Below, in pieces: positions 10,985 through 52,800 of a DNA stretch of 64,000 bases; the first letter of the stretch is position 1; the number at the start of each line of letters is the position of its first letter. Source of the stretch: Planctomycetota bacterium (GTDB taxonomy: Bacteria; Planctomycetota; PLA2; JAEUHO01); the NCBI GenBank assembly GCA_029259775.1, contig JAJDEN010000026.1, positions 60,059 to 124,058 on the forward strand, written 5' to 3'. A model generated the notes under the pieces. That model was not told where the DNA came from. It was given only the letters and a program-made list of their open reading frames with translations, and ran no database searches. The translations under genes and the position numbers were made by a program.

Positions 10985-11282
10985 CGGTCTTCTCCGAAGG
11001 GGGTGTTGCCCCGTGAACTCCCGAGAAGCTGATCCTGCGGACTGGGAATCGAAGACCGTCGACCGCACGAGGATCACCAAGGGCTCGAAGCTCCCACACG
11101 ACCTGCGGTCGTGGGGGTCCCGTCATCAGCTACGAACGCGAGCGCGCGCTCGCCGGCTCGCACACTGGCTCGTGCGCCCCACACGGTGGCCCCGGATGGC
11201 AGCGGGGTTGAGAAGGACTCGCCAACTCGGGTGCTAGCTCGCACGCGCTCTACGGAGGTCGGGAGTTGGCAGGCCAAAAATG

Positions 11283-11311
11283 GAACGGGCCCCGTCCGTC
11301 AGGACGGGGCC
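11283..11311 (-). terminator. Intrinsic terminator (GGGCCCCGUCC-loop-GGACGGGGCCC followed by a U-run on the minus strand) downstream of the displaced tRNA-Pro 3' end
   Basis: Perfect 11-bp inverted repeat at 11286-11311. Plus-strand AAAAA at 11278-11282 equals a UUUUU tail for a minus-strand transcript. Confidence 0.5.
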
Positions 11312-11317
11312 CGTAAG

Positions 11318-11364
11318 TGGTCGGGGCGAGAAGATTCGAACTTCCGACCTCCTGCTCCCGAAGC
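11318..11364 (-). repeat. 47-bp exact duplicate of the 3' part of tRNA-Pro(CGG) (anticodon stem to CCA): att-type direct repeat
   Basis: 11318-11364 is identical 47/47 to 15348-15394, the 3' portion of the intact tRNA. The sequence 5' of it does not form D-arm or acceptor pairing, so this copy is not a functional tRNA. Confidence 0.7.
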
Positions 11365-11424
11365 CCGGTGGCCATGTGAAGCGGGTGCGAGGGACAGGGC
11401 TCTGGGGGCGTTGGCGGTTTCACC

Positions 11425-11490
11425 TGGCCAACTGCCTGGCCACATTGTGCGCCGTTCGATGCCGCTCGTTGCTGTACGCGGCGACCCGAT
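11425..11490. repeat. Copy A of a ~65-bp imperfect repeat (CTGGCCA-N-CTGCCTGGCCAC...CGCCGTTCGATGC...CGCTCGTTGC)
   Basis: Aligns with copies at 13363-13440 and 15188-15262 at ~75-85% identity. It generates paralogous spurious ORFs on both strands (e.g. ...RGNERH..ASNGR.GGQ...). Confidence 0.5.
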
Positions 11491-11532
11491 ACATGCACTG
11501 TCGCCACCGCCATCCGGGCGAGCATGCGACGC

Positions 11533-12687
11533 CTAGGGAAGCCGAACGGGGAGCCCCTCGCGGATCGTGCGGACGAACCGGCGCCCTGCAATCTCGTACT
11601 CGATGATCAGGTCCTTCGTGATTCCGGGGAGCGGATCGCCTGCTAGTTCGTTGGTTGCCCGCGCACGAAGGCTGCCGCCTTCGACGAGCCTCCGAAGCAC
11701 CTTCGTCACATCTACGATCTTGCCGCGTGCGCCGTAGAGGGCGCTCCGAACGACCAGCGTCGCTCCCGCGTCCGCATCCAAAGTAGCGAGCCGCCTATGC
11801 GCGGCCTCGCGCACCCAGGGATCAGCGTGGGTTTCGGCCATCTGTTCGACGAGCCGCTTCAGCCTGTCGCTCTGCCGCAGCGCGGCTTCTTCCTTCTCTA
11901 GGATGTACCGCGCAAGTCCAGACGCCACGGTTTGCGCCTCCAGTGCTGCTTCTGCGAGAGCGGCACGCCCAGCAGCGTCCGCGCCGGTCGAGAGGAGCCC
12001 GTATGTCTCGGCGGAGAGTTCCCCTCGGCGCGCTGCTGCCAGGGCGAGCGCACGTCCCTCCCCGCCAAAGCGCGGCAGGATCGCCAGTGCGGTGTGCTGC
12101 ATGAGCGGGTCGCGGGTCCGCATGAGAGCCTCAAGATCCCGGCTGATCCGAGGGCGCGCGTCGGCATCGGAGGAGAGTGCCGCCAGCGCGGCAGCCGCAT
12201 GAACCCCTCGCGTCGGATCACGGGCGAGCCTCAACAACTCGTCGATAGGTGAAGGTGCAACCCGCAGAGCCCATCCGATTCCGCGACGAACCTCAGCAAG
12301 GTCGCGTGATCCCAGCCACGCCGAAACCTCATCGGCGTCCGGCTCGGGGCCGGTGGCCGCAGCAGCACACGCCTCCAAGACAAGGCGCACGGCACTCGAC
12401 AATGACGACTGCGTGGGCAGCGCCACCAAGCGCGCCTTGCCCCGGCGAGAGGCCTCGTCAGCCGTAGTGAAGTTACCTACTGAGGGGGGGGCGACCTCCG
12501 TGGCCGCGCCGCGCGGGCTGTTGCCCGTGAGCCCAGGACTATCTGGAACGAGCGATGGGGCGTCAGATCCGCGTTCCGGCGCCCGGGCTTCCAGGGGCGG
12601 AGCAGGATTGTCGCCTCGTGACAACAGGCTGGTGAGAACTGCCCCCGCAAGAACTCCACAGCCAAACCAGATGAGACCGTACCGCAT
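11533..12687 (-). CDS. Hypothetical N-terminally membrane-anchored protein with Ala/Leu-rich helical (HEAT/ARM-like) middle and conserved C-terminal domain
   Basis: MRYGLIWFGCGVLAGAVLTSLL TM anchor. C-terminus VVRSALYGARGKIVDVTKVLRRL...GDPLPGITKDLIIEYEIAGRRF looks like a conserved globular domain. Lies inside the islet. Confidence 0.5.
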   Translation of the reverse strand: MRYGLIWFGCGVLAGAVLTSLLSRGDNPAPPLEARAPERGSDAPSLVPDSPGLTGNSPRGAATEVAPPSVGNFTTADEASRRGKARLVALPTQSSLSSAVRLVLEACAAAATGPEPDADEVSAWLGSRDLAEVRRGIGWALRVAPSPIDELLRLARDPTRGVHAAAALAALSSDADARPRISRDLEALMRTRDPLMQHTALAILPRFGGEGRALALAAARRGELSAETYGLLSTGADAAGRAALAEAALEAQTVASGLARYILEKEEAALRQSDRLKRLVEQMAETHADPWVREAAHRRLATLDADAGATLVVRSALYGARGKIVDVTKVLRRLVEGGSLRARATNELAGDPLPGITKDLIIEYEIAGRRFVRTIREGLPVRLP

Positions 12688-15347: not shown

Positions 15348-15424
15348 TGGTCGGGGCGAGAAGATTCGAACTTCCGACCTCCTGCTCCCGAAGCAGGCGC
15401 GCTACCAAGCTGCGCTACGCCCCG
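15348..15424 (-). tRNA. tRNA-Pro (anticodon CGG), CCA encoded
   Basis: Reverse complement: CGGGGCG UA GCGCAGCUUGGUAGCGC G CCUGC UUCGGGA GCAGG AGGUC GGAAG UUCGAAU CUUCU CGCCCCG A CCA. 7-bp acceptor stem, D-arm, anticodon loop UUCGGGA (anticodon CGG), T-loop GGTTCGAAT-like, discriminator A. Very similar to E. coli tRNA-Pro(CGG). Confidence 0.85.
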
Positions 15425-39863: not shown

Positions 39864-40424
39864 CCTGGGCAAGCTCGGCAGAGGCCCATTTCGCGGCGTT
39901 TCAGGCAAAGGCCCGGCCAATTGTCAGCCAGATGCTAAGGACCGGCTCCTGGGGCGACAGGTCGCGCCGCCGCCCCGTCGATGGGGTCTCCGGACTGGTG
40001 AAAGGAGCAGGCACAGGGACCAAGACCAGACACCGACAGGACCTGCTGGCTTCAAGGGATTTTGGCCGGCAGCTGTCAAGGGTGTGACAACGGAGCGAGC
40101 CCGTCTTGTGAGAGCGGATGGCGAGCTTCGGACATGGGTACGACGAGCACCTGGGGGGGACGACTCCGCGGGAAGCTTCCTGCACGAGTCGCCTGAGTGT
40201 GCCTTGTCGATGTCCACTAGCATTGTCCATCCGTTTGGCGGGAGGGTGTCGCCGCGTGCGGCGCACACCAGGACAGGAACCGCGCGACACGACGAGCGAT
40301 CGGGCTGGGGAGTCCGAATGCTGGGGAGCAGCTCGTCGCATGTCGTCGCGGTCGGAGGGGCTGGGTCCCTTCGCTCTGAATCAGGCATGGCCGTGAGGTC
40401 GCGCTACCACGCTCCGACCTGTTT

Positions 40425-40458
40425 CGCGGGACGCGCAAGCGTCCCGCCTCCTTTTTTG
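40425..40458 (+). terminator. Strong rho-independent terminator (GCGGGACGC-gcaa-GCGUCCCGC + CUCCUUUUUUGG)
   Basis: Read directly. It ends a ~560-bp ORF-poor, lower-GC stretch (39864-40424) downstream of pyk. Confidence 0.6.
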
Positions 40459-40463
40459 GACCG

Positions 40464-40679
40464 CTAGGGGAGGACGCCGAGCATCCAGCATCCGAGCGCG
40501 GCGAGGCCCAGCCCGACGGCCAGCCCGCTGCCGCCGCGCTTCGCGGCGCCCTCGGTCATCGCGATCAGGCCCATGAACGCCGTGGCCAGCCCGGCGAGGC
40601 CGAGCAGCACACCGCCAATCGAGCCGAGCGTGTCCGAGAACGCGCCGGCGGCAAGCCACGAGAGGCAGGCGGTCGTCAT
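40464..40679 (-). CDS. Small hydrophobic membrane protein (71 aa)
   Basis: MTTACLSWLAAGAFSDTLGSIGGVLLGLAGLATAFMGLIAMTEGAAKRGGSGLAVGLGLAALGCWMLGVLP gives two predicted TM helices. The start overlaps the AI-2E gene stop (ATGA). Confidence 0.5.
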   Translation of the reverse strand: MTTACLSWLAAGAFSDTLGSIGGVLLGLAGLATAFMGLIAMTEGAAKRGGSGLAVGLGLAALGCWMLGVLP

Positions 40680-42292
40680 GAGGCGATTCCTTCGGAGGGT
40701 GCGGCCTTCCCCTCGGCGGGCGCGGCGCGCTTCGAGAAGCGGGACGTGACCTTCTGCCACAGCACGGTGAACATCCCGCCGTGTCCGTCGTCGTCCTCAT
40801 CCTTCGGGTGTCCCTCGATCTCGTGCAGGTAGAAGCGGAAGCAGCTCTGCACGATGCTCATCGTCGGCACGGCGAGCAGGGCACCCCAGATCCCGAACGT
40901 GTGCTCGCCCGCGAGCAGCGAGAAGATGATGATCACCGGATGCATGCGTGCGTGCGTCCCCATGATCATGGGGTTGAAGATGTTGGCCTCCAGCACGTGG
41001 ATCAGGACGATCCAGCCCAGCGCGAAGAGCGCGGTGTCGAGCCCCTCCGTAGCGCCCACCAGCACGATCGGGATGGACGACACGATCGTGCCGAACACGG
41101 GGATGAGGCTCAGCACGGCGGCGACGCAGGCCAGCACCAGGGCATAGGGCACGCCAAAGACGAGCAGGCCGATGTACGTCAGGAGGCCGTTGACGCCGCA
41201 GATCACCAACTGGCCGCGAATCACACCGGCGAGGCCGTCGTCCACGTACTTCACCAGTGCGTGATAGGCCGACTCGTGGCGGGGCGGCGGCAGGCTCGCG
41301 AAGAAGCCGGCGATCACGCGGCGGTCCATCACGATGAAGGCCGTGAGCATCAGGATCAGGAAGAACTCGTAGATCGAGAACACGAGCTTGCCGGCCAGCG
41401 CCACGGCGCCCTTGCCGACTTTCTCGGGCAGGTCTTCCTTGAGCGTCTCACCTTGGATCGCAACGAAGTCGCGGACGAGCGTCGGCTCGACCTCGAAGCC
41501 GACGTCGGCGAGGTTCTCGACGATGGGGCTGATGAAGCGCCGCTCAACGAAGTACTCGAGGCCGGTCGCGGCCGCGCCGGCCGTGAGCTCGAGTCGCTCC
41601 GCGTCAGCGAACGTGACCTTCGTACCGTCCGCGTACGTGAGCCCCATCACGTCGGTGAACTCGGCCACGAGAACTTCCGGTGGCTTGCCATCCTTGGCGT
41701 GCTTGTGCTCGGGGCCGCTCTCGTGCTCGAGCAGCACCGTGACACGGCGCTCTTCGGGCGAGACCTTGATCTGGTAGAGCGTCGAGTACTTGCCGCCCTG
41801 CACGTCGAGGATCGTGCCCTTGGGGATCACGATCGTGCGCTCCACGGGGAGCACCTTCGGCGCGCCCTTGCTCTCGGCGCCCTTCGGTGCCTCGAGCTCC
41901 GGCAGGTAGAAGGTCGCCTTGTGGCCCTCCTCCTGGAGCGCCCGGCTGACGGATTGGGACGTCGATGTGATCGTCTTCGCGAGCTTCGTGATGCCGACCC
42001 AGCCGAGGACGGCGAGGCCGCCGAGCACGAGGACGTAGAGCGTCACGATCGTGGGGCCGCGCGTCCACTTGAGGCCAAGCAGTCGGCTGCGCACCACGCG
42101 CTGGACGATGGGCTCCACCAGGTAGGCGATGTAGATCGCCATCAGGAAGGGGAACAGCACCTTGTTGAAGACGACCAGCAGCAGCACGAAGACCACGGCG
42201 AAGGCCAGCAGGATGCGCACCCGCGGCTTGCGCAGCGAGGTCGGGGCCGCGTCGGGGCCCGCGGCCTCCTGCTCCGGTTTGTCTTCTGCCAT
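40676..42292 (-). CDS. AI-2E family transporter (PerM/UPF0118) with inserted soluble domain
   Basis: Multiple TM helices and the characteristic C-terminal block GVIRGQLVICGVNGLLTYIGLLVFGVPYALVLACVAAVLSLIPVFG...LLAVP of the AI-2E family. Confidence 0.85.
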   Translation of the reverse strand: MAEDKPEQEAAGPDAAPTSLRKPRVRILLAFAVVFVLLLVVFNKVLFPFLMAIYIAYLVEPIVQRVVRSRLLGLKWTRGPTIVTLYVLVLGGLAVLGWVGITKLAKTITSTSQSVSRALQEEGHKATFYLPELEAPKGAESKGAPKVLPVERTIVIPKGTILDVQGGKYSTLYQIKVSPEERRVTVLLEHESGPEHKHAKDGKPPEVLVAEFTDVMGLTYADGTKVTFADAERLELTAGAAATGLEYFVERRFISPIVENLADVGFEVEPTLVRDFVAIQGETLKEDLPEKVGKGAVALAGKLVFSIYEFFLILMLTAFIVMDRRVIAGFFASLPPPRHESAYHALVKYVDDGLAGVIRGQLVICGVNGLLTYIGLLVFGVPYALVLACVAAVLSLIPVFGTIVSSIPIVLVGATEGLDTALFALGWIVLIHVLEANIFNPMIMGTHARMHPVIIIFSLLAGEHTFGIWGALLAVPTMSIVQSCFRFYLHEIEGHPKDEDDDGHGGMFTVLWQKVTSRFSKRAAPAEGKAAPSEGIAS

Positions 42293-42363
42293 GAGCGGTA
42301 CGATACGGAGCAGCCCCGGGGGGCGAAAGGCGGCAACGGCATTCCCGCGGCGTTTGGAATCTT

Positions 42364-43779
42364 GTGCACCGCATGCGAACCCCGCCCCGGACGCTCCTGG
42401 CCGTCCTGCTGGCCGCGACCCTCACGGCGTCGCTGGGCGCCGGGGCCCCGGTGTGGGCCGAGCCGCCTGCCGGCAAGGTCAGCCCGGAGGCCTTGCGCGA
42501 CACCCTCGCGGGCCTGACGGCGCGCGGAGCGCCGGCGCGCATGGAGGCGCTCGGCCACCTGGACAGCCTGCTCTCGGTGGATCCGGCGGTGGGGCTCCAA
42601 GCGCTCTCGAGGCTCCGGGGCATCCTGCGGCTACGACGACCCGCCGAGGTCGCCCGCGTGCTCGGACTCCTCGTGCGGATCCCCGACAAGGAGGCGCGGG
42701 CGCTCTGGCTGGCACGGCTGGACCCGGCTGAGGAGCCCGATGACCGCGTTCTCGCCGCGGCCGTGGCCTCGACGAGGCAGGTCCGGAACGACGCAGCCGT
42801 CCTGCGTCTGCTGCTCGCGGCCGTGCGCGAGAAGGCCGTCCGCGACGGTCGCCTGACGCCGGCCCGTCGCGCGGTGCTGCTCGAGGCCCTGGGCCACCTC
42901 GAGAGCCCGGCGGTCGATCTGCTGCTGCTCCGTCCGCGGGCCGGCGAGCATTGGGTCGAGGCCAGCGCACGTGCCTTGGCGCTGGGCCACCGCGCTGCGC
43001 CGAGCTCCGTGCCGGCGTTGCTCGCGATCCTCGACCACAAGGAACTGGCCCCCCGGGTCCATGCCTGGGAGTCGCTCGTGCGCCTGACCCATCGGAACTT
43101 CCCGGCCAAGCTGGCGCCATGGAAGGCCTGGTGGGCCAAGCAGGACAACACGAAGCTCCCCGCGCGGCCGGCGCCCCCCCAAGCGGGCAAGCGCTATGCG
43201 ACGAAGAAGCCCGTCCACGTCCCACACTACTACGACATCCCGATTCCGCGCCCGGGCAGCCATGTGGTCTTCTGCCTCGACGCGAGCCAGAGCATGTACG
43301 GCCCGGGCATCGAGCAAGCGCGGCGCGAGTTGACGAAGACGATCATGGACCTGCCCTCGGCGCACGCGTTCGAGATCGTGGTGTTCAACGAGAAGGTGCT
43401 GCCCTGGGCCAAGCGCCTCGTGCGCGCCCATCCCGTCCAGAAGCACCTGGCGATCGAGCACCTGAAGCGGGTCGAGCCGACGAGCTACACCAACCTCTAC
43501 GGCGCCGTCGAGATGGCCTTCCGCCACGCGGGGCGGGGGATCCGCGAAATGCCCGCGACCGTCGAACTGGATGCGATCTTCCTCTTGTCGGACGGCGCGC
43601 CGAACCGCGGCCAGTTCCGCAGTCCCGAGCGCGTGGTCAAGCACATCGCCCGCATGGCCAAGCGCGGCACGGACCGCGAGATCCCGGTGCACACCATCGG
43701 CGCCGGCGAGGAGGTCTTCCCGCTGCTGCGCGCCATCGCGCGCGAGACGGGCGGCACCTTCGTGGACGCCTTCGATTGA
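42364..43779 (+). CDS. Secreted HEAT-repeat protein with C-terminal von Willebrand factor A (vWA) domain
   Basis: Signal peptide. vWA MIDAS-like HVVFCLDASQSMYG...LSDGAPN...TIGAG. Antisense ORF 42631-45012 rejected. Confidence 0.75.
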   Translation: MHRMRTPPRTLLAVLLAATLTASLGAGAPVWAEPPAGKVSPEALRDTLAGLTARGAPARMEALGHLDSLLSVDPAVGLQALSRLRGILRLRRPAEVARVLGLLVRIPDKEARALWLARLDPAEEPDDRVLAAAVASTRQVRNDAAVLRLLLAAVREKAVRDGRLTPARRAVLLEALGHLESPAVDLLLLRPRAGEHWVEASARALALGHRAAPSSVPALLAILDHKELAPRVHAWESLVRLTHRNFPAKLAPWKAWWAKQDNTKLPARPAPPQAGKRYATKKPVHVPHYYDIPIPRPGSHVVFCLDASQSMYGPGIEQARRELTKTIMDLPSAHAFEIVVFNEKVLPWAKRLVRAHPVQKHLAIEHLKRVEPTSYTNLYGAVEMAFRHAGRGIREMPATVELDAIFLLSDGAPNRGQFRSPERVVKHIARMAKRGTDREIPVHTIGAGEEVFPLLRAIARETGGTFVDAFD

Positions 43780-43840
43780 CCCGCAGGCGAGACGGGGGCC
43801 GCCATGCTTGCGCCAGCCGCGCGCGCGCGTAGCTTGCATC

Positions 43841-44949
43841 CATGAGCACCGATGCTGCCGAGATCCGCAAGCGCCTGAAGGCCCTCCGAGACCGCTTCGA
43901 GCGGCTCCGGGGGCGGCTTTGACCTCGATACCAAGCGCGAAGAACGATCCGATCTCGAGAAGCTCATGCTCGCGTCCGACTTCTGGGGCAACCAGGAGAA
44001 GGCGCAGCAGGTCGTCGCGCAGCTGAAGATCGTCAAGGCGGCCGTCGAGCCCTTCGACGACTTCCTGGCCAAGCTCGACGACGCGGACATCCTGTTCGGT
44101 CTCGGCGAAGAAGCCAGCGATGAGGAGACCCTGGTCGAGGCGGAAGCCGAGGCTGCGACGCTCGATGGCGAGATGGAGAGCCTCGAGTTCCGCACGCTCC
44201 TCTCGGGGCCCAACGACCAACTCGGGGCGTTCCTGCAAGTGAACGCGGGCGCCGGCGGCACCGAGTCGTGCGACTGGGCCGAGATGCTGCTGCGCATGTA
44301 CCGGCGCTGGGCCGAGCGCATGGACTTCAAGGCCGCGGACATCGAGATCCAAGCCAACGACGAGGCGGGCATCCGCTCGGCGCTGATCGAGATCCGGGGG
44401 CCGTACGTCTACGGGTACCTGAAGCACGAGGCGGGCGTGCACCGTCTCGTGCGCATCAGCCCGTTCGACGCCCAGAGCCGTCGCCAGACGACCTTTGCCT
44501 CGCTCGACGTGACGCCGCTGGTCGACGACTCGGTCGTCATCGACATCAAGGACGCGGACATCGAGATCGAGACCTTCAAGGCCGGTGGGGCGGGTGGCCA
44601 GCACGTCAACAAGACCGAGTCGGCCGTGCGCATCCGCCACCTCCCGACGGGCGCCGTCGTCTCCTGCCAGAACGAGCGTTCCCAGCACCGCAACCGCAAG
44701 GTCGCGATGCAGATGCTCAAGGCCAAGCTGATGCGTCTCGAGGAAGAGAAGCGCTCGGCTGCGGCGTCGAGCCGCTACGACGAGAAGGGCGAGATCGCCT
44801 GGGGCAACCAGATCCGCTCCTACGTCCTGAACCCGTACCAGCTCGTGAAGGACCACCGCACGGCGCACGAGACGGGCAACATCATCGCTGTCCTCGACGG
44901 CGACCTCACCCCGTTCATGGAGGCCGCCCTGCGCGAGCTGGAGACCTAG
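43841..44949 (+). CDS. prfB: Peptide chain release factor 2 with programmed +1 ribosomal frameshift (join 43841..43918, 43920..44949)
   Basis: Frame 0 [26 protein letters not shown] ends at CTT TGA C (43916-43922), preceded by an SD-like GGGGG. The +1 frame continues [22 protein letters not shown]... into the RF2 body ([17 protein letters not shown] with the GGQ motif). This is the canonical RF2 autoregulatory frameshift site. Confidence 0.9.
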
Positions 44950-45821
44950 CCCTTCGCGACCATCCGCTCGAACGCTGCCCAGCCGGCCAGCTGGGCGTCG
45001 GTCAGCGAGCACGTGCCCGTCGTCGCCTTCTTGTGGCGAACGGCGCGCAGCCAGCGGCGCGTCGCACGCGGCAGCTGCAGCTTGTCGTTCACGACGAGGC
45101 CCGTCACGCGCTGGAGGCGGTGGCGGTAGAGGATCTTCAGCTTCGTGTTGCGGTGCGCCACGTAGTCGTGCGCCTTCAGGATGCGCGCGGCCTTTTGCAC
45201 CGTGCCGCGCACGCGCCGCCCTTGCAACTCGCCGTAGGGGTGGCGGTCGAAGCTGATGGTGATGTCGTCGGCATAGCGCGTGTAGAAGCCATCGCGCTTC
45301 GTGATCATCTGCAGCAACATCGCGTCGAGCCCGACGTTGACCAGGTTGCTGAGCCGGGGGCTCGTGGGCGCGCCCTGGGGCAGGGCACCGTCGTGGGTCG
45401 TCATGCGGGTGAGCAGCGCCGCCGCCTTCTTGCTCCAGCCGATGCGCCGGAAGTAGCTCTCGACGCGCGACGAAGGCGTCGCCGGGAAGAACTCGATCAC
45501 GTCCATCTTGATGACGACGTCACGGCCCACGTGCGGCCGCGCGTTGTCGACGATGGAGCGACCCTTTTCGAAGCCCGTGGCGGCGGGGTGGGCGCGCAGC
45601 TTGGCCAGCACGCGGCGCAGGATCCGGCGCTGGATCTCCTTGGTCTCGTCGTTGGGGATCAGCAGCGTGCGGGTCCCGCCGCGCCGCTTGGGGATCCGCA
45701 CCTCCGCGTAGCGGATGCGCGCGCCATGCAGGACTTCGATGGGCATGCCCAGCCGCACGGCGAGCGTCTTGAGCCCCAGGCCCCAGCCGAGCGACGCGCG
45801 CAAGCGATGCCACATCCCCAT
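44946..45821 (-). CDS. Reverse transcriptase, compact (291 aa), retron-type (YADD + VTG motifs)
   Basis: RT domains: [14 protein letters not shown] (1), FFPATPSS (2), [15 protein letters not shown] (4), [12 protein letters not shown] (5, YADD), then [11 protein letters not shown] (the VTG motif typical of retron RTs). No RNase H, maturase or endonuclease domains. Confidence 0.85.
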
Positions 45822-46123
45822 GCGCCTACGCCTCCCTGTTCGCGTGAAGAAACGCGGGCGGAGACCCGGAGGTCTCCACCCGCGCCGGCCTTGCTACGGC
45901 AGCGCGGCTGCGTTGAGCTAGCCGTCCGGCCGCTCAACGCAGCCGGACTGCCGATCGAGTGAGTCTCAGGGACGCCCTTGCGGCCCGGACGACGAAGCAT
46001 CGCCCTGCATGGCTTCACACACCGCCAAGGCACGGCGGACGCATTCTGCCGCCCGGGGACCCCAGCCATCGGCCGGGCTGATGGCCGCATTCCGTGGGCG
46101 CCGTCGGTGGGCGCGGCTAGATC
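45822..46123 (-). ncRNA. Candidate retron msr-msd-like structured non-coding region upstream of the RT
   Basis: The 300-bp RT-proximal region contains a 14-bp perfect hairpin CGGCTGCGTTGAGC-N13-GCTCAACGCAGCCG (45905-45945), a ~13-bp bulged hairpin CGCGGGCGGAGACC-cgga-GGTCTCCACCCGCG (45853-45884) and a flanking inverted repeat GTGAAG/CTTCAC (45843-45849 / 46012-46019, a1/a2-like). Boundaries are not determined. Confidence 0.35.
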
Positions 46124-47719
46124 ATGGCCATGAACGACCTCGTCCGCGTCCAGCGCGCCTTGCTCTCCGTCTTCGACAAGACCGGCCTCGCCGAACTGGG
46201 CCAGGCCCTGGCCGCGCGCGGCGTCGAGCTCCTCTCCACCGGCGGCTCCGCGAGGACCCTGCGCGCAGCGGGCCTCGAGGTGAAGGACGTCGCCGAAGAG
46301 ACGGGCTTCCCCGAGATGATGGACGGCCGCGTCAAGACGCTGCACCCGCGCGTCCACGGTGCGCTGCTCGGACGCCGGGACGTCGATGCGGACGTCATGG
46401 CCGAGCACGGCATCCGTGGCATCGACCTCGTCGTCTGCAATCTCTATCCGTTCGAGGCCACGATCCAGCGTGAGGGCGTCACCTTCGCGGAGGTCATCGA
46501 ACAGATCGACATCGGTGGCCCCTCGATGGTGCGCAGCGCGGCGAAGAACCACCGCTGGGTCTCGATCGTCACCGACCCCGCGCAGTACGCCGATCTGCTC
46601 GCCGACCTCGACGCTCACGACGGCGCCACGACCATGGGCCTGCGTCGCAAGCTCGCCGCCGCCGCCTACGCGCGCACCGGCGCCTACGACGGCTCGATCG
46701 GTCGCTGGTTCGCCGCGCAGGAAGGCGAGACGCTGCCGCTCACCATGGGCCCGGCCGTCCGGACCGACACCCTCCGCTACGGCGAGAACCCGCACCAGGA
46801 AGCCGCCATCTACGTCGACCCGATGGCGCCGGCAGGCTCGCTGGCCGCGTCGAAGCTGCTCGGCGGCAAGGCCATTTCCTTCAACAACTACGGTGACGTC
46901 GACGCGGCGTGGGCGCTCGTGCGCGAGTTCGATCAGCCGGCATGCGTCGTCATCAAGCACGCCAATCCCTGCGGCGCAGCCCTCGGAGCGACGCAGGCCG
47001 AGGCCTACGAACGGGCCGTCGCCTGCGATCCGCGCAGCGCCTTCGGCGGCGTCGTCGCGTTCAACCGTCCGCTCGAGGCCGGCGTCGCCCGGGCGATGGC
47101 GGTGAAGGAGCGCTTCTTCGAGGTGGCGATCGCACCGGGCGTCGAGGACGGCGTGCCAGAGGTCTTCACCGGCGAGGGCGCGCCGAAGTGGGGCAAGAGC
47201 CTGCGACTGCTCGACGCGGGCACGGCCGGGACGCCGCCGCATGGCTTCGACATCCGCAGCATCGACGGCGGCCTGCTCGTGCAGACGCGCGACCGCGCCC
47301 CGTTCGGCGAGGGCGCGCCCACGAGCGTCAGCGCACGCGCGCCCACGGAGCAGGAGGCGGTCGACCTCGACTTCGCGTGGCGCGTCTGCAAGCACACGCG
47401 CAGCAACGCCATCGTCCTGGCGAAGGGCGGCCGCGCCGTCGGTGTGGGCGCCGGCCAGATGAGCCGGGTCGAAGCGACCGAAATCGCCGTCACCCGCGCG
47501 CGCCGCTGGGCCGAAGAGACCGGCGAGAGCCTCGAGGGCTGCGTCGTGGCGAGCGACGCCTTCTACCCCTTCAACGATGCCATTGAGACCGCCTTGGAGG
47601 CGGGCGCGAAGGCGATCGTGCAGCCTGGTGGGTCGCGCAACGACGAGCGGGCCATCACGCTCTGCGATGAACGCGGCATCGCCATGTGGTTCGCGGGCCA
47701 CCGACACTTCCGGCACTAG
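46124..47719 (+). CDS. purH: Bifunctional AICAR transformylase / IMP cyclohydrolase
   Basis: MGS-like N-terminal domain (ALLSVFDKTGL...LLSTGGSA...GRVKTLHP) and AICARFT domain (KHANPCG, ...GGTA...). 531 aa. Confidence 0.9.
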   Translation: MAMNDLVRVQRALLSVFDKTGLAELGQALAARGVELLSTGGSARTLRAAGLEVKDVAEETGFPEMMDGRVKTLHPRVHGALLGRRDVDADVMAEHGIRGIDLVVCNLYPFEATIQREGVTFAEVIEQIDIGGPSMVRSAAKNHRWVSIVTDPAQYADLLADLDAHDGATTMGLRRKLAAAAYARTGAYDGSIGRWFAAQEGETLPLTMGPAVRTDTLRYGENPHQEAAIYVDPMAPAGSLAASKLLGGKAISFNNYGDVDAAWALVREFDQPACVVIKHANPCGAALGATQAEAYERAVACDPRSAFGGVVAFNRPLEAGVARAMAVKERFFEVAIAPGVEDGVPEVFTGEGAPKWGKSLRLLDAGTAGTPPHGFDIRSIDGGLLVQTRDRAPFGEGAPTSVSARAPTEQEAVDLDFAWRVCKHTRSNAIVLAKGGRAVGVGAGQMSRVEATEIAVTRARRWAEETGESLEGCVVASDAFYPFNDAIETALEAGAKAIVQPGGSRNDERAITLCDERGIAMWFAGHRHFRH

Positions 47720-47904
47720 CTGCCTCATTTGGGGCGTGGATGCCCCGCATCGCTTGGGCGTCCCGCGCCCTGTGCTAGCCTGAAACCCCGATACGGCTGT
47801 CATCGACGTGGCCTGCTGCTCCGAGCAAGGTGCCTTCCCAGGCCGGGCCCCGCCGACGGTCGCCGTCTCTTCGAACCGCGCAGACACGCTGCTGTGTCGC
47901 GCTT

Positions 47905-49680
47905 ATGCATTCGACGGAAGACGACATCTTGAAATCCACGGACCGCCGGCTGGCCGAGTGCCAGCGTGTGATTGGCTACTACTTCTCCAACCCGAAGCTC
48001 ATCGAGACGGCGCTCACGCACTCCTCGCTGCGCACGCCGGACCGCGAGTGCAACGAGCGGCTCGAGTTCCTCGGGGACTCGGTGCTCGGCCTCGTGATCA
48101 CCGAGGACCTCTACCACCTGCTGCCCGACCAGAGCGAAGGCGAGCTGACGCGGATCAAGTCCGCGGTCGTCTCGCGCAGCGCCCTGCTCGTCACGTCCCA
48201 GGCGCTCGACCTGCAGCGCTTCGCAGAGTTCGCACGCGGCGTGGGCAAGCGTGACACGCTGCCTGCCAGCGTCGTCGCCAACCTGGTCGAGGCCGTCATC
48301 GGCGCGATCTACCTCGATGCCGGCTACTACCCCGCCCGCGAGTTCGTACTCCGGCACATGGGTGCGGCCATCGACGACGAGCTCAACGACCGCGGCGCCA
48401 AGAACTACAAGAGCCTGCTTCAGCACGAGGCGCAGCAGTCGGTCGGCGTCACGCCGACCTACCGCACCGTCGATGCCGACGGCCCCGACCACGCCAAGGA
48501 GTTCGTCGTCGCGGCGATCATCCGTGGCCAGGAGTGGGGCCGTGCCAGCGGCACGACCAAGAAGGATGCCGAGCAGGACGCCGCACGTCTCGCGCTCGAG
48601 GCCTGGGGCCGCCGGGGGCGTGGTCGTCGCCGGCGCCGCAAGCGCAAGGGCGAGACCGTCGCCGACCTTGGGGGATCGACACCCGACATCGAGATCGACC
48701 TGGAAGTCGACAGCGACGACCGCGACGTCACCGTCGACACGCGTCCGCCGGACGCCAAGCCCGCGGCGATCGACGCGGCCTCCGAGCGCAGCGTTGCTCC
48801 CCGAGAGGCTGCTCCCCGAGAGGCTGGCCCCCGGAAGGCCGCCCCCCGGAAGGCCGCCCCCCGAAAGGCTGCTCCCGCACCTGTAGATCCCGTCGCCGAA
48901 GCGCCGCGTGGCGGCTTCGGCGCCGGCATCGACGAGGCTGTGGCCGTCACGCCCGAGGCCAGCACGCCCGAAGCGAAGACGTCCGAGGCGGCACCCTCCG
49001 ACGCCGCATCCTCAGATCCGGCTTCGCCCGAGACCGAGAAGCGACCGCGTCGGCGCAAGCGCGCCCGTCGTCGTCGCCGTTCGGACGTCAAGGTCGAAGG
49101 TGCTGACGCCGCGGCCGGCGATGCCGCGCCGACAAAGGAGCCCGTCGACAAACCTTCCGTGGAGCCCGCTGTCCCCGAGCGCGCGCCGAAGATCGCACGG
49201 ACCCCCGCACCGCCGCCCGCCCCGGCGCCGGATCCGGCCCCCGTCCCCGAAGGGGAGAAGGCGCCTCGCCGTTCACGTCGCCGTTCGCGACGTCGCCCCG
49301 ACGCCGCCGCCGAGGCGCCCGCGCCGGCCGCCAGCGCGCGCAAGGTGCCTGTCGCCCGCCACGACGAGCCGCCGACGCAGGCAGCGCCTGCGCCGAAGGC
49401 AGGTGCGCCCGAGGCGGATGCTCCGAAGGCAGCCACGCCGAAGGCAGCCACGCCGAAGGCAGCCCCTCGAAAGGCATCGCCCCCGAAGACGCCTACGCCC
49501 AAGCCCGACCATGCCGGGTTCGGTGTGGGCATCGACGTCCCTGCCTCGAAGGGGCGCGCACCGAAACGGCCCGCGCCCGTGAAGGTCAAGAAGCTCGAAG
49601 CTCCCGGCCGCAAGCGCGCTCCCTCCACTGCCGCCCGCAAGCCGAAGAGCGACAAGGGCGGCTTCGGCAGCGGGATCTGA
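47905..49680 (+). CDS. rnc: Ribonuclease III with ~370-aa Ala/Pro/Lys/Arg-rich low-complexity C-terminal extension
   Basis: RNase III signature ERLEFLGDSVLGLVITEDLY and dsRBD (PTYRTVDADGPDHAKEFVVAAIIRG...DAEQDAARLALEAW). A long tail follows with repeats (KAAPRKAAPRKAAP; KAATPKAATPKAAPRKASPPKTPTPKP). Start at ATG 47905. Confidence 0.85.
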   Translation: MHSTEDDILKSTDRRLAECQRVIGYYFSNPKLIETALTHSSLRTPDRECNERLEFLGDSVLGLVITEDLYHLLPDQSEGELTRIKSAVVSRSALLVTSQALDLQRFAEFARGVGKRDTLPASVVANLVEAVIGAIYLDAGYYPAREFVLRHMGAAIDDELNDRGAKNYKSLLQHEAQQSVGVTPTYRTVDADGPDHAKEFVVAAIIRGQEWGRASGTTKKDAEQDAARLALEAWGRRGRGRRRRRKRKGETVADLGGSTPDIEIDLEVDSDDRDVTVDTRPPDAKPAAIDAASERSVAPREAAPREAGPRKAAPRKAAPRKAAPAPVDPVAEAPRGGFGAGIDEAVAVTPEASTPEAKTSEAAPSDAASSDPASPETEKRPRRRKRARRRRRSDVKVEGADAAAGDAAPTKEPVDKPSVEPAVPERAPKIARTPAPPPAPAPDPAPVPEGEKAPRRSRRRSRRRPDAAAEAPAPAASARKVPVARHDEPPTQAAPAPKAGAPEADAPKAATPKAATPKAAPRKASPPKTPTPKPDHAGFGVGIDVPASKGRAPKRPAPVKVKKLEAPGRKRAPSTAARKPKSDKGGFGSGI

Positions 49681-49813
49681 CCCGGATCCCGTTCATCGCG
49701 TAGTCTTGCGGCGCTCAGCCGTCGGGCGCCGGCCCGTTCTCGGGCCGCGGTCCGACCGCTGAGCAGGCTCACCGCTGAAGCAAGCCGCCGACTCCCTTCC
49801 GCCGATCGGAAGC

Positions 49814-52800
49814 GTGGCGGGCCGTATCCAGGCCCTCCTCGGTGGAGAGAGGTCTGCCCACGTCGCCGGGCTGCATGGCGCGTCGCTCGGCCTCGTGCTG
49901 GCCCACGTCGCCGCCGCCGGCACGCCGCTGCTCGTCGTGGCCAGCGACCCCAAGTCCGTCGACGTGATCCGCCTGGACGTCGAGACGCTGCTGGGCACAC
50001 CGGCGCTGGCGCTGCCGATCTGGCCGCGGGAGGAGCGTGGTGGCCCGCCCGACAGCGAGGTCTTACAGGGCCGGGCCGCCGTGCTCGAACGCCTGCACCG
50101 CGCGCGTGGCGCAACCACACGCGAGGGCCCCGCGCCAGTCGTCGTCACGACCCTCGCGGCGCTGGCCCAGCGCGTGCCGGGTCCTGAGGTGCTCGAGGCG
50201 GCGACGCTCGCCCTCGCGCGCGGCGCGCAGCATCCCCTGCCCGTGCTGCTCGAGCATCTTGCCTCCGCAGGCTATGGCCGCGTCGGCGCCGTCGAAGCGC
50301 CCGGCGAGTTCGCCAGCCGCGGCGGCCTGCTCGACGTCTGGCCGTGGGGGTCGCCGGACCCGTCCCGTCTGGACTTCTTCGGCGACGAGCTCGAGAGCGT
50401 GCGTGCGCTCGATCCGGCCACGCAGCGCAGCGGCGAGGAGCGTGAGGAGATGCAGGTACTCGCCCTTGGGGCCGAGCGCTTTCGCGACCCGCACGGCGAC
50501 GAGGGTGCCACCTTCCTCACGGCCCACCTGCCGGACCACGCGCGCGTCGCGCTCGTCGAACAGGAAGCGCTGGTCGGCGCGGCGACATCGCTGCGCACGG
50601 GCGGCGCGGCCTCCGAGCGTGACGACGTCGCCCGCTTGGAGCGTGAGTTGGGCGCGCGCCCGGTGCTCGTCCTCTCGGAGCTGGCCCACGGCGGCGACGC
50701 GCTCGACGTCAAGGTCGGCGGCGTGGACCTGCTGCGCGGCATCGCCATGCGCAAGCGCACCGAGAAGGAGGCGCCGCGCGAGCGCGCCGAACGGATCGCC
50801 GCGGCCTTCGCCGAGCTCGGCCAGCGCGTGGAGCGCCTGGTGATCTACCGCCGCGCGGTGGGCGAGGAGGAGCGCATGCGCGAGGTGTTCGAGGAGCACC
50901 CACCTGGGCTGCCCATCGCCTGGCATACGGGTTCGCTCTCCCGCTCCTTCGTCTGGCACGCGACGAAGACGGCGCACGTCGCCTACGACGATCTGCTCGA
51001 TCTGCCGCTGCGGGAGCGACGCGGACCGCGCCAGGCCACGCCGAGCCGTCCGATCCAGGACTTCCTCGAGCTGGTCGAGGGTGGCCCGGTCGTGCACCTG
51101 CATCACGGCATCGGGCTCTACCGTGGGCTCGTCGAGCTCGAGGGCAACGAGGGCACGGGCGAGTACCTGAAGGTCGAGTTCGCCGAGGGCACGATCGTCT
51201 ACGTGCCCGTCGCGCGCATCGACCTCGTGCAGCGCTACATCGGCACGGGTCGCCGTCCGAAGCTCAGCAAGCTGGGCGGGCAGGACTGGACCAAGCGCAA
51301 GAAGAAGGTCTCAGCTGCGGTCGAGGAGCTGGCCGACCAACTGCTCGCGACACAGGCCTTGCGTGCGAAACGCCGCGGCGCCGCTCTGCCCGCCGACAGC
51401 GAGTGGCAGCTCGAGTTCGAGCACGCGTTTCCGCACCCGGCGACGCCCGACCAGACGTCGGCCGTGCGGTCGATCAAGGACGATCTCGAGGGCGACCAGC
51501 CCATGGACCGGCTGCTGTGCGGCGACGTGGGCTACGGCAAGACCGAGGTCGCGCTGCGTGCCGTGTTCAAGGTGGTCACCAACGGCCGGCAGGCCGCGAT
51601 CCTGGTGCCCACCAAGGTGCTCGCTGAGCAGCATGTGCGCGTCTTCACGCAGCGCTTGGCGCCCTATCCCCTGACCGTGCGGGCGCTCTCGGGCCTGCAC
51701 TCCGCGGCGGACAACCGCGCGACGATCGAGGGGCTCAAGGACGGCACGGTCGACCTCGTCGTCGGCACGCACCGGCTGCTCAGCAAGGACGTGGGCTTCC
51801 ACAACCTGGGCCTTGTCTGCATCGACGAGGAGCAGCGCTTCGGCGTCCAGCACAAGGAACGCCTCAAGGAGCTGCGCAGCCAGATCGACATCCTGGCACT
51901 CAGCGCGACGCCCATCCCGCGCACGCTGCACATGGCCTTGCTCGGCATTCGCGACATCAGCAACCTCACGACACCGCCCCTGGGTCGGCATCCGATCGAG
52001 ACGAAGGTGGCGCGCGAGAGCGACGAACTCGTCCAGCATGCCATTCGGCGTGAGCTCGGACGCGGCGGTCAGGTGTTCATGGTGAGCAGTCGCATCCGCG
52101 AGCTGCCGATGATCGCGAGCAACCTGATGCAGCTCGTGCCGGAGCTGCGCGTCGTCGTCATCCACGGCCAGATGGACAAGGACCTCATCGAGCAGCGCAT
52201 GCTGCGGTTCGTACGCGGCGAGGCCGACCTGATGCTCGCGACGACGATCATCGAGAGCGGGCTCGACATCCCGAACGCCAACACGATCATCCTGCGCGAC
52301 GCGGATCGCTACGGCCTGTCTGAGCTGCACCAGCTGCGCGGACGCGTCGGGCGCGAGCGCCGGCATGCGCACGCGCTAGTGCTCCTGCCCAAGGGGCGTC
52401 CGCTGCGCGACGAGGCCGCCGAGCGCCTGCGCGCCATCGAGGAGTACAGCGAGCTGGGGGCGGGCTTCCGCATCGCCATGCGGGATCTCGAGATCCGCGG
52501 CGCGGGCAATCTCCTCGGGCCGCAGCAGTCGGGGCACATCGCGGCCGTCGGCTACGACCTCTACTGCAAGTTGCTGGGCGAGGCCGTCGAGGTGGCGCGT
52601 GGCCGCTCCCAGGATGAACGCTACGAGCCCGCGTTCCTCGCCATCGACGTGCCGGGGGCCGTGCCCGACGACTACGTCGGCGACGTGCGCGAGAAGTTCC
52701 GCATCTTCCGCCGTGTTGCGGCCGCCTCGACGCGCGAGGACTTCGAGGATCTGCGCGAGGAACTCACCGACCGCTTCGGCAAGCCGCCCAAGCAGGTGCG

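Follow-up and report, generated by a model that had tools for sequence, protein, structure and literature searches.

We analyzed a 64,000-nt stretch of contig JAJDEN010000026.1 from a Planctomycetota bacterium (hereafter the window; 69% GC) and focus here on a compact reverse transcriptase (RT) gene that lies on the minus strand between prfB, which encodes RF2, and purH. An earlier interpretation made from the letters of the window, which we call the sequence-only reading, had placed the RT gene convergent with prfB and divergent from purH, as we confirm, and had proposed the locus as a candidate novel or minimal retron. Comparative evidence supports this proposal, and the locus is not a one-off but belongs to a large clade. 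Based on our analyses, it is predicted to be an effector-less member of a large unclassified retron clade with its own RNA family, the RNA being encoded in the spacer between the RT gene and purH.

The RT gene encodes an intact retron-type enzyme

The RT open reading frame (ORF) begins with ATG, has no in-frame start farther upstream, and yielded RVT_1 as the single domain found by Pfam. The translation contains the motifs NARPH (residues 93-97), YADD (183-186), and VTG (239-241), all of which are unchanged across 19 orthologues (A94, P96, H97, V239, T240, and G241 are invariant). NAxxH in region X, between RT2 and RT3, and VTG in region Y, within RT7, are signatures of retron RTs (PMC7736814), and the window RT carries both. 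The ORF, the Pfam result, and the motifs of the orthologues all agree with the sequence-only description of a compact, 291-aa retron-type RT with YADD and VTG and no extra domain.

Profile searches gave the same picture. The best 25 PADLOC matches listed for the RT were retron RT models only, led by RT_XIII (231 bits, in two stretches), RT_X (213.5), RT_III-A (213), and RT_II-A (204); the RT_Ec107-like model scored 193.5 bits, under RT_XIII. The RT_X profile aligned over its full length with RT residues 28-290. In NCBIfam, the top three entries were retron RT families, while the non-retron scores were 41.7 bits for the group II RT/maturase (cut-off 300) and 37.8 bits over 58 residues for Drt2. 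No RT model of diversity-generating retroelements (DGRs) was among the best 25 PADLOC matches or the NCBIfam matches. The sequence-only reading had left room for a different RT class, but retron models score best when set against DGR, Abi/UG, and group II models. The nearest solved structure is the RT of Retron-Eco1, or Ec86 (7v9u; E = 2.7e-32).

Elements that accompany other RT classes were not detected either. No direct repeat of at least 30 nt in 40000-52000 involves the RT gene, and thus there is no DGR-type template/variable repeat pair in this region. One 31-nt direct-repeat family (D7) has a copy in the RT-purH spacer (46093-46123) and another in mfd (50281-50311); the copies are 77% identical and look like a chance match. 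Rfam gave no match to a group II intron RNA. Relative to its orthologues, the RT has a ratio of nonsynonymous to synonymous substitution rates (dN/dS) of ~0.2-0.3, with dS near saturation. Altogether, the sequence evidence is that the gene product is an intact retron reverse transcriptase under purifying selection.

A conserved msr-msd RNA lies upstream of the RT gene

The sequence-only reading had noted two hairpins upstream of the RT gene, and both are where it placed them. One has 22-nt arms (45897-45918/45932-45953) that are 91% complementary, with an exact 14-bp core inside; the other is a GC hairpin with 14-nt arms (45853-45866/45871-45884), 93% complementary. The 302-nt spacer as a whole folds with z = -6.5 relative to shuffles, while the 192-nt unit at 45846-46037 reaches z = -8.7 (0 of 200 shuffles folded as well). 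The minimum free energy (MFE) fold of 46037-45846 matches exactly the comparative RNA model described below.

For the comparative analysis, close orthologues (RT identity 62-80%) were fetched individually. Even where the RTs share just 65% identity, an upstream block of ~50 nt is nearly unchanged, and the same RNA layout is found throughout the clade, down to ~41% RT identity. The layout begins with a locus-specific stretch ending in YUUG, followed by GG, hairpin P1, RGG, hairpin P2 (GGN-YGRYG-NUU-CGYCR-NCC), and hairpin P3; it continues with CYUGAGA, a variable hairpin, a G, CAAG plus the complement of the first stretch, and finally the GC hairpin. RNAalifold predicted P1 and P2 with compensatory changes. 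In a 34-sequence model-based alignment, there were 85 double-change cells against 31 in shuffles, with none of 500 shuffles reaching the observed value, and slid controls collapsed. This alignment was fitted to the model, which favours the model; counts from MAFFT-only alignments agree.

The two inverted repeats that close the RNA, a1 and a2, differ in sequence from locus to locus and covary, forming 7-13 pairs with at most one mismatch (e.g., GCGCCGUCUUG/CAAGACGGUAC, AUAGACGUUCUG/CAGAACGUCUA, and GUGAUCCUG/CAGGAUCA). The binding energy of a1 to its own a2 is -17.6 kcal/mol, compared with -15.2 kcal/mol for a swapped a2, and under a bias-free, position-only rule, 2 of 5000 permutations were as good as the observed pairing. 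Two opposing G residues are a feature of retron RNAs (PMC7736814). The window RNA combines a structured ncRNA upstream of the RT, made up of msr hairpins and a long msd stem-loop, with an a1/a2 pair and two opposing Gs. A covarying a1/a2 pair and the branching-G context are kept in orthologous loci. The sequence-only reading had proposed an msr-msd upstream of the RT and in the same orientation; a conserved, covarying RNA across the clade loci bears this out, and we conclude that, as far as sequence and predicted structure can tell, the upstream RNA is a canonical msr-msd.

Within this RNA, P2 is the most conserved element and probably the hairpin recognized by the RT. The linker CUGAGACUC at the msr/msd junction is, by analogy with Ec86, the probable region where reverse transcription stops. 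The multicopy single-stranded DNA (msDNA) predicted from these boundaries (plus strand of 45895-45968, ~74 nt) folds at -30.5 kcal/mol (z = -5.6).

Two finer assignments of the sequence-only reading need revision. The GTGAAG/CTTCAC inverted repeat it described is present (73% over 15 nt), but it is not conserved in orthologues and is no better than seven exact 7-nt pairs in the same 381 bases. Nor does it form a1/a2: GUGUG belongs to P1, GTGAAG lies in the P1 loop and so is not a2, and the real pair joins 46026-46036 with 45884-45893. We thus rejected GUGUGAAG/CUUCACGC, the a2/a1 pair that this reading implied, as orthologues show GUGUG pairing locally in P1 and the true a1 starting with CAAG. 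The GC hairpin is not part of the msd but intrinsic-terminator-like, because it lies 3' of a1 and is followed by UUUCUUC.

Predicted templates differ in length among relatives. In Phycisphaerae-type relatives (L011, L012, L014, L015, L020, L024, and L026-L029), the predicted msd is ~30 nt, lies between P3 and a1, and consists of a 6-8-bp hairpin with the conserved loop UCGCA or a close variant nearly always. By analogy, the msDNA of these relatives would be among the shortest known, and that of L089-L091 would be ~50 nt.

Table 1. Positions of the RT gene, the RNA elements, and other features in the window
Feature	Position	Strand	Evidence or detail
Retron RT gene, 291 aa, no fused domain	44946-45821	minus	ORF call, hidden Markov model profiles, motifs, dN/dS
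-10-like box CAGAAT for ncRNA	46043-46048	minus	aligns with TAnAAT-like boxes of relatives; weak match
a2 inverted repeat GCCGUGCCUUG, U46032 bulged	46026-46036	minus	covariation, MFE fold
Candidate branching G, second G of conserved YUUGG, directly 3' of a2	46025	minus	near-invariant column; faces G45894 in MFE fold
msr hairpin P1 (GUGUG...CAUGC), GTGAAG in loop	46006-46022	minus	92% of cells paired, 4/5 pairs with compensatory changes
msr hairpin P2, 8-bp stem, CUU triloop (GGGCGAUG CUU CGUCGUCC)	45987-46005	minus	99.3% of cells paired, 4/8 pairs compensatory
msr hairpin P3 (GGGCCGCAAGGGCGUCCC)	45969-45986	minus	MFE fold; register varies among sequences
Conserved linker CUGAGACUC, msr/msd junction	45961-45969	minus	orthologue alignments
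Predicted msd, msDNA template	45895-45968	minus	lies between conserved CUGAGACUC and opposing G; extent by analogy with Ec86
Long msd stem-loop, 57 nt, 22-nt arms	45897-45953	minus	sequence and length vary among orthologues
Opposing G, directly 5' of a1, facing candidate branching G	45894	minus	G in loci with a1 correctly located
a1 inverted repeat CAAGGCCGGC, pairs with a2	45884-45893	minus	MFE fold, covariation
Terminator-like element: 13-bp GC-rich hairpin (45854-45883), then GUUUCUUC (45846-45853)	45846-45883	minus	terminator scan, MFE fold
prfB, short upstream ORF from ATG 43843 to CTT TGA C (43917-43923)	43843-43925	plus	
prfB, 327-aa ORF	43966-44949	plus	
purH	46124-47719	plus	
rnc (RNase III), 616 aa	47830-49680	plus	ERLEFLGDS signature; double-stranded RNA-binding domain by homology with L089
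tRNA-Pro (CGG)	15348-15424	minus	sole Rfam/ARAGORN match in the window

The RNA resembles a separate transcription unit

In most relatives, a TTGACA-like -35 and a TAnAAT-like -10 element are spaced for transcription to start at a2; the window's candidate -10 box occupies the corresponding position (Table 1). At the other end, the terminator-like hairpin is placed between a1 and the RT start codon. Of 33 related loci, 21 were scored by script as having a hairpin with a T-tract at this position; inspection of the other 12 by eye showed a GC hairpin in most, though not in L030 and L070. Runs of 5-7 T follow the hairpin in lower-GC genomes. The RNA therefore looks like a discrete unit of ~190 nt (46037 to 45846, minus strand) with its own predicted promoter and terminator, so expression of the RT would need read-through or an internal promoter. 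To our knowledge, a retron RNA separated from its RT gene by a terminator has not been described before.

The RNA marks a clade found mainly in Planctomycetota

A covariance model of the RNA, R1, matched 34 of 34 clade loci among the matches listed, but none of the 54 further retron loci of the genome scan and none of 80 viral retron loci. In the window, it matched a single site. Metagenomes scanned with an RNA-only pattern yielded three loci, each with a clade RT after the RNA, while a metagenome scan with peptides of the exact window RT found no match. Rfam gave no match to the window RNA even at E values up to 10, including its retron msr family. The RNA is found with the RT even where the neighbour genes are quite different.

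In a rough neighbour-joining tree, made without bootstrap, 31 of the 33 RNA-positive RTs fall in one group beside the type XIII group; the RTs of L030 and L070 fall outside it. The clade is found mainly in Planctomycetota but also in Verrucomicrobiota, Armatimonadota, Acidobacteriota, Methylomirabilota, and others. With at least eight phyla represented, the clade must have undergone horizontal transfer deep in its history. The contigs of two close relatives, L006 (syntenic with the window) and L090, are labelled Planctomycetota_JAEUHO01, so that the window is probably of planctomycetal and not of myxobacterial origin. Neither 72,556 plasmids nor 50,697 phages, collections in which Planctomycetota elements are poorly sampled, yielded a clade member (best identity 37%), and none was among the 548 confirmed RT matches listed from a viral-contig scan.

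The locus fits no described retron type and has no cis effector

Although RT_XIII is the best-scoring PADLOC model, the window RT does not reach the scores of that family. Type XIII RT cores from Hyalangium, Chitinophaga, and Archangium score 474, 481, and 419 bits against this model, and two myxobacterial relatives score 351 and 343, with margins of ~34 to 180 bits over the next model. Clade RTs score 231-280 bits with margins of ~5-25 bits, and the N-terminal part of the type XIII profile (~140 residues) has no counterpart in them. In none of the 29 clade loci do the type XIII partner genes, for a SWIM/winged-helix protein (cluster 114) and a HEAT/ARM-repeat protein (cluster 216), occur within 5 kb of the RT. 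R1, the RNA model made from this clade, gives no match in type XIII loci. As for type X, whose partner is an IHF-like/TM/VHL-beta protein (cluster 2273), the gene upstream of the window RT is purH, and no such partner neighbours the RT in the clade loci. We leave the locus out of type XIII, type X, and all others of the 13 types because scores, partner genes, and neighbourhoods do not fit. Orphan retron branches have been described in RT clades 2 and 11 only (PMC7736814). A 2026 survey reported some Planctomycetota RTs as type XIII and, as a separate result, a large share of low-confidence calls for this phylum (10.64898/2026.05.14.725207); its type XIII calls may include RTs of this clade.

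We compared all ORFs within 5 kb on either side of the RT, all versus all, across 29 clade loci. RT aside, no cluster occurred in more than three loci. As a positive control, the same method applied to 26 type XIII-like sister loci recovered two genes upstream of the RT, in 17 and 14 loci. The encoded proteins, of ~550-600 and ~1000-1100 aa, fit the SWIM/winged-helix and HEAT-repeat partners, an assignment made by size and position only. The sequence-only reading had seen no effector, and this holds: the control worked, and no neighbour is conserved. The window locus itself, bounded by prfB and purH, has neither an effector gene nor an effector domain fused to the RT, in a search limited to genes in cis and to 64 kb of the genome. 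In this it differs from almost all known retrons.

Two candidate partners were rejected. VWA-domain proteins occur near the RT in the window, L006, and L004, but their cluster joins just 3 of 29 loci. In L004 (RT 65% identical), the convergent gene at 11049-12221 codes for a dGTPase-like protein with HD/HD_assoc domains. Enzymes of this kind can take part in defence against phages, but such a gene is seen beside the RT in no other locus.

Most relatives carry an N-terminal transmembrane helix

Among the 120 homologues nearest to the window RT (identity of 54% or more), 91 carry a predicted transmembrane (TM) helix, seen as a strongly hydrophobic segment at the N-terminus. It is followed by basic residues and then by W.RLRA.LGWGLG, the motif that forms the N-terminus of the window RT. 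The helix is absent from the window RT and its 19 closest homologues; members that bear it include most of the homologues P0020-P0120 and the RTs of loci L007, L009, L010, L013, L017, and L022. Because the window lineage is nested among helix-bearing relatives in the tree, loss of the helix looks derived. We considered whether the N-terminus of the window RT is an amphipathic membrane helix that replaces the TM helix, and rejected this, as its hydrophobic moment (0.39) is below the background mean (0.77). In the retron papers searched, we found no description of a TM helix fused to the RT N-terminus.

The retron occupies a housekeeping site

The stop codons of the RT gene and prfB overlap by 4 nt in the palindrome CTAG (44946-44949), leaving no space for a terminator between them. 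In relatives, the two genes overlap by 29 nt (L006) or lie 141 nt apart (L089). In L089, the gene order is mfd-rnc-RT-prfB-VWA; the L091 contig ends after mfd-rnc-RT, and the L006 contig begins at the RT and continues with prfB and downstream genes. The window matches the order of L089 (prfB-RT-rnc-mfd) except that purH lies between the RT gene and rnc. This arrangement is not shared by L089 or L091, where the retron RNA faces rnc directly. From the gene orders, we take the placement of purH to be a local insertion or rearrangement within otherwise kept synteny. RF2 is 78-81% identical among the window, L089, and L006, and the RT is 66-78% identical. These comparisons indicate that the retron has been retained vertically at a syntenic housekeeping site in the window lineage.

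The neighbouring genes have features of their own. prfB has a classical programmed +1 frameshift, in which a short upstream ORF runs to the shift site with a GGGGG Shine-Dalgarno-like run just ahead; because of this upstream site, the 327-aa ORF represents the downstream frame only. The product of rnc ends in a C-terminal tail of ~350 residues, with a high content of Pro, Ala, Lys, and Arg and with short tandem repeats such as APRKAAPRKAAPRK (repeat families D1 and D9); its orthologues are 542 and 671 aa. Between the promoter of the ncRNA and the start of purH is an imperfect 25-nt palindrome (within 46050-46100; arms 1 nt apart, 72% complementary), which may be part of the leader of purH.

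Proposed mechanism and alternative explanations

We propose that the RNA would fold with a2 pairing to a1, setting G46025 opposite G45894, and that the RT would bind the msr chiefly through the P2 hairpin with its UUU-type triloop. The RT would prime from the 2'-OH of G46025 and copy from 45895 towards ~45968, stopping at the conserved CUGAGACUC. The product would be a branched RNA-DNA with the ~74-nt DNA as a long hairpin. Our best guess is that the RT-msDNA particle would serve to sense phages, like that of other retrons. The output in most relatives is probably the RT's own N-terminal TM helix; the window lineage has lost this helix, so it would act via a partner encoded elsewhere or through the particle itself.

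Taken together, the locus is probably a functional two-part retron of an unclassified clade, consisting of a separately promoted and terminated ~190-nt msr-msd RNA and a compact RT. For its role, our first choice is a defence sensor, with either an unlinked partner or a self-contained particle. A further, tentative possibility concerns the clade as a whole, which could represent a retron type without a separate effector: most members would be membrane-anchored through the RT helix as output, while the helix-less window lineage would have long kept a bare RT-msDNA particle at a housekeeping locus. If true, the retron would either have been domesticated for a cellular role or be the first one known to have the RT-msDNA particle as output.

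Several points weigh against our interpretation. P3 modelled in a single register pairs in 49% of cells, and for this reason we report it as a per-sequence hairpin only. CAGAAT was missed by a consensus promoter scan and matches the sigma-70 consensus poorly. Branching, the length of the msDNA, and function are predictions, and both the branching G and the stop site were placed on the analogy of Ec86. When R1 was run on the Ec86 locus with filters off, its best match was that of the P2 sub-model to the msr hairpin GGAUGUUGUUUCGGCAUCC (8-bp stem, UUU loop), and this match is short (E = 0.1). Finally, a defence role sits uneasily with a fixed housekeeping position and the absence of a toxic module.

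The housekeeping synteny and missing toxin make domestication a serious second choice, although we consider it rather unlikely. Here, the retron would be active, its particle would serve a cellular non-defence role (e.g., nucleic-acid or stress physiology), and there would be no toxin partner anywhere in the genome. Consistent with this, the core-gene position is stable across genomes with RF2 just ~80% identical, purifying selection acts on the RT and more strongly still on the RNA, none of the 29 loci has a cis effector, the TM helix was lost in the window lineage, and no clade member appeared in the plasmids, phages, or viral-contig RT matches listed. The possibility was raised by Mestre et al. 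for orphan and vertically inherited retrons (PMC7736814). However, retrons of known function are all anti-phage, and the spread of the clade over at least eight phyla implies deep horizontal transfer. In addition, the sequence and length of the msd hairpin are free to vary, as they are in defence retrons, and the neighbour genes suggest no candidate cellular role.

It is very unlikely that the locus is a functionless, decayed remnant of a type XIII retron that lost its SWIM/winged-helix and HEAT-repeat partners. The RT keeps its catalytic motifs and has a dN/dS of ~0.2-0.3, and the RNA hardly varies; the partner genes are absent clade-wide and not at the window locus alone. That RT_XIII is the top PADLOC model and that the clade adjoins the type XIII group in the rough tree would suit such an origin, but the score is 231 bits (compared with 419-481 for type XIII cores, and 351 and 343 for myxobacterial relatives), its margin over other types is small, the ~140-residue N-terminal part of the profile has no counterpart, and the RNA model has no matches in type XIII loci. 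We give still less credence to the idea that the hairpins are ordinary regulatory elements of the purH/RT spacer and that the RT acts alone as a member of a different enzyme class (DGR, Abi/UG, or group II-like). One of the two hairpins is indeed terminator-like, and Rfam, including its retron msr family, gave no match; however, the RNA tracks the RT and not purH across loci with differing neighbours, the group II (41.7 bits) and Drt2 (37.8 bits) scores are far under those of retron models, and there is neither a DGR-type repeat pair nor a group II intron RNA.

Retrons are now seen as three-part, toxin/antitoxin-like defence systems, and the role of effector-less, vertically inherited ones has long been open, since the myxobacterial retrons. 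If the interpretation of a functional two-part retron holds, this locus is a clean study case, with an RNA family that has a defined promoter, branch site, template, and terminator, and a 291-aa RT with no conserved partner gene in 29 loci. The membrane-anchored RTs of relatives and the helix-less window lineage offer a natural comparison. HMM-based surveys appear to file Planctomycetota RTs of this kind as low-confidence type XIII (10.64898/2026.05.14.725207), and thus a separate class with its own covariance model would improve annotation. The small RT and the short predicted templates of relatives (~30 nt) are also of practical interest for retron-based DNA production.

Comparison with known systems

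Type XIII, which corresponds to RT clade 10 (Retron-Mxa1/Mx162, Mxa2/Mx65, Nex2/Ne144, and Sau1/Sa163; PMC7736814), is the closest described type by best-scoring RT model and by its adjoining group in the rough tree, and its msr-msd likewise precedes the RT. Type XIII is reported to be inherited vertically (PMC7736814). In contrast, the window RT scores ~190-250 bits below three members and lacks the ~140-residue N-terminal extension, and the window locus probably has a different RNA family and has neither the SWIM/winged-helix nor the HEAT-repeat partner. Orphan retrons (the Retron-Eco5/Ec107-like branch of clade 2, and clade 11) also consist of an RT and ncRNA without a specific protein (PMC7736814). 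However, they belong to other RT clades, their hosts are Bacillota/Actinobacteria, whereas the window clade is mainly from Planctomycetota, and most window-clade members have the N-terminal TM helix.

Type IV (Retron-Eco6/Ec48, with a two-TM effector) is comparable only to the relatives, in which a membrane segment is the sole plausible output module. The Ec48 membrane protein is a separate gene, with an RT of clade 3, whereas the relatives fuse a single helix to the RT and the window RT has none. Systems of the UG/DRT class (e.g., DRT2) combine an RT with a structured ncRNA for defence without a separate toxin gene. Their RT class is unrelated; the window RNA has the a1/a2 and branch-G layout of retrons, and at the window locus there is no sign of templating by a rolling circle or of an ORF carried by the cDNA.

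Retron-Eco1 (Ec86, type II-A3) is alike in the overall plan of its RNA. The sequence of its ncRNA was confirmed at 100% identity in 48 E. coli genomes beside the retron genes. The Ec86 msDNA runs from a start opposite the base that lies 5' of the opposing G to an end opposite the junction motif. Ec86 differs in having an adjacent NDT-type effector and in lying in a prophage, whereas the window locus is effector-less among housekeeping genes and has a terminator-like hairpin between the RNA and the RT gene. Yet both RNAs share a2, a branch G, msr hairpins, an msd stem-loop, an opposing G, and a1, the RT of Ec86 is the nearest of solved structure, and Ec86 carries UCUGAGUUACU at the msr/msd junction, the place equivalent to CUGAGACUC, so that both have a CUGAG motif there.

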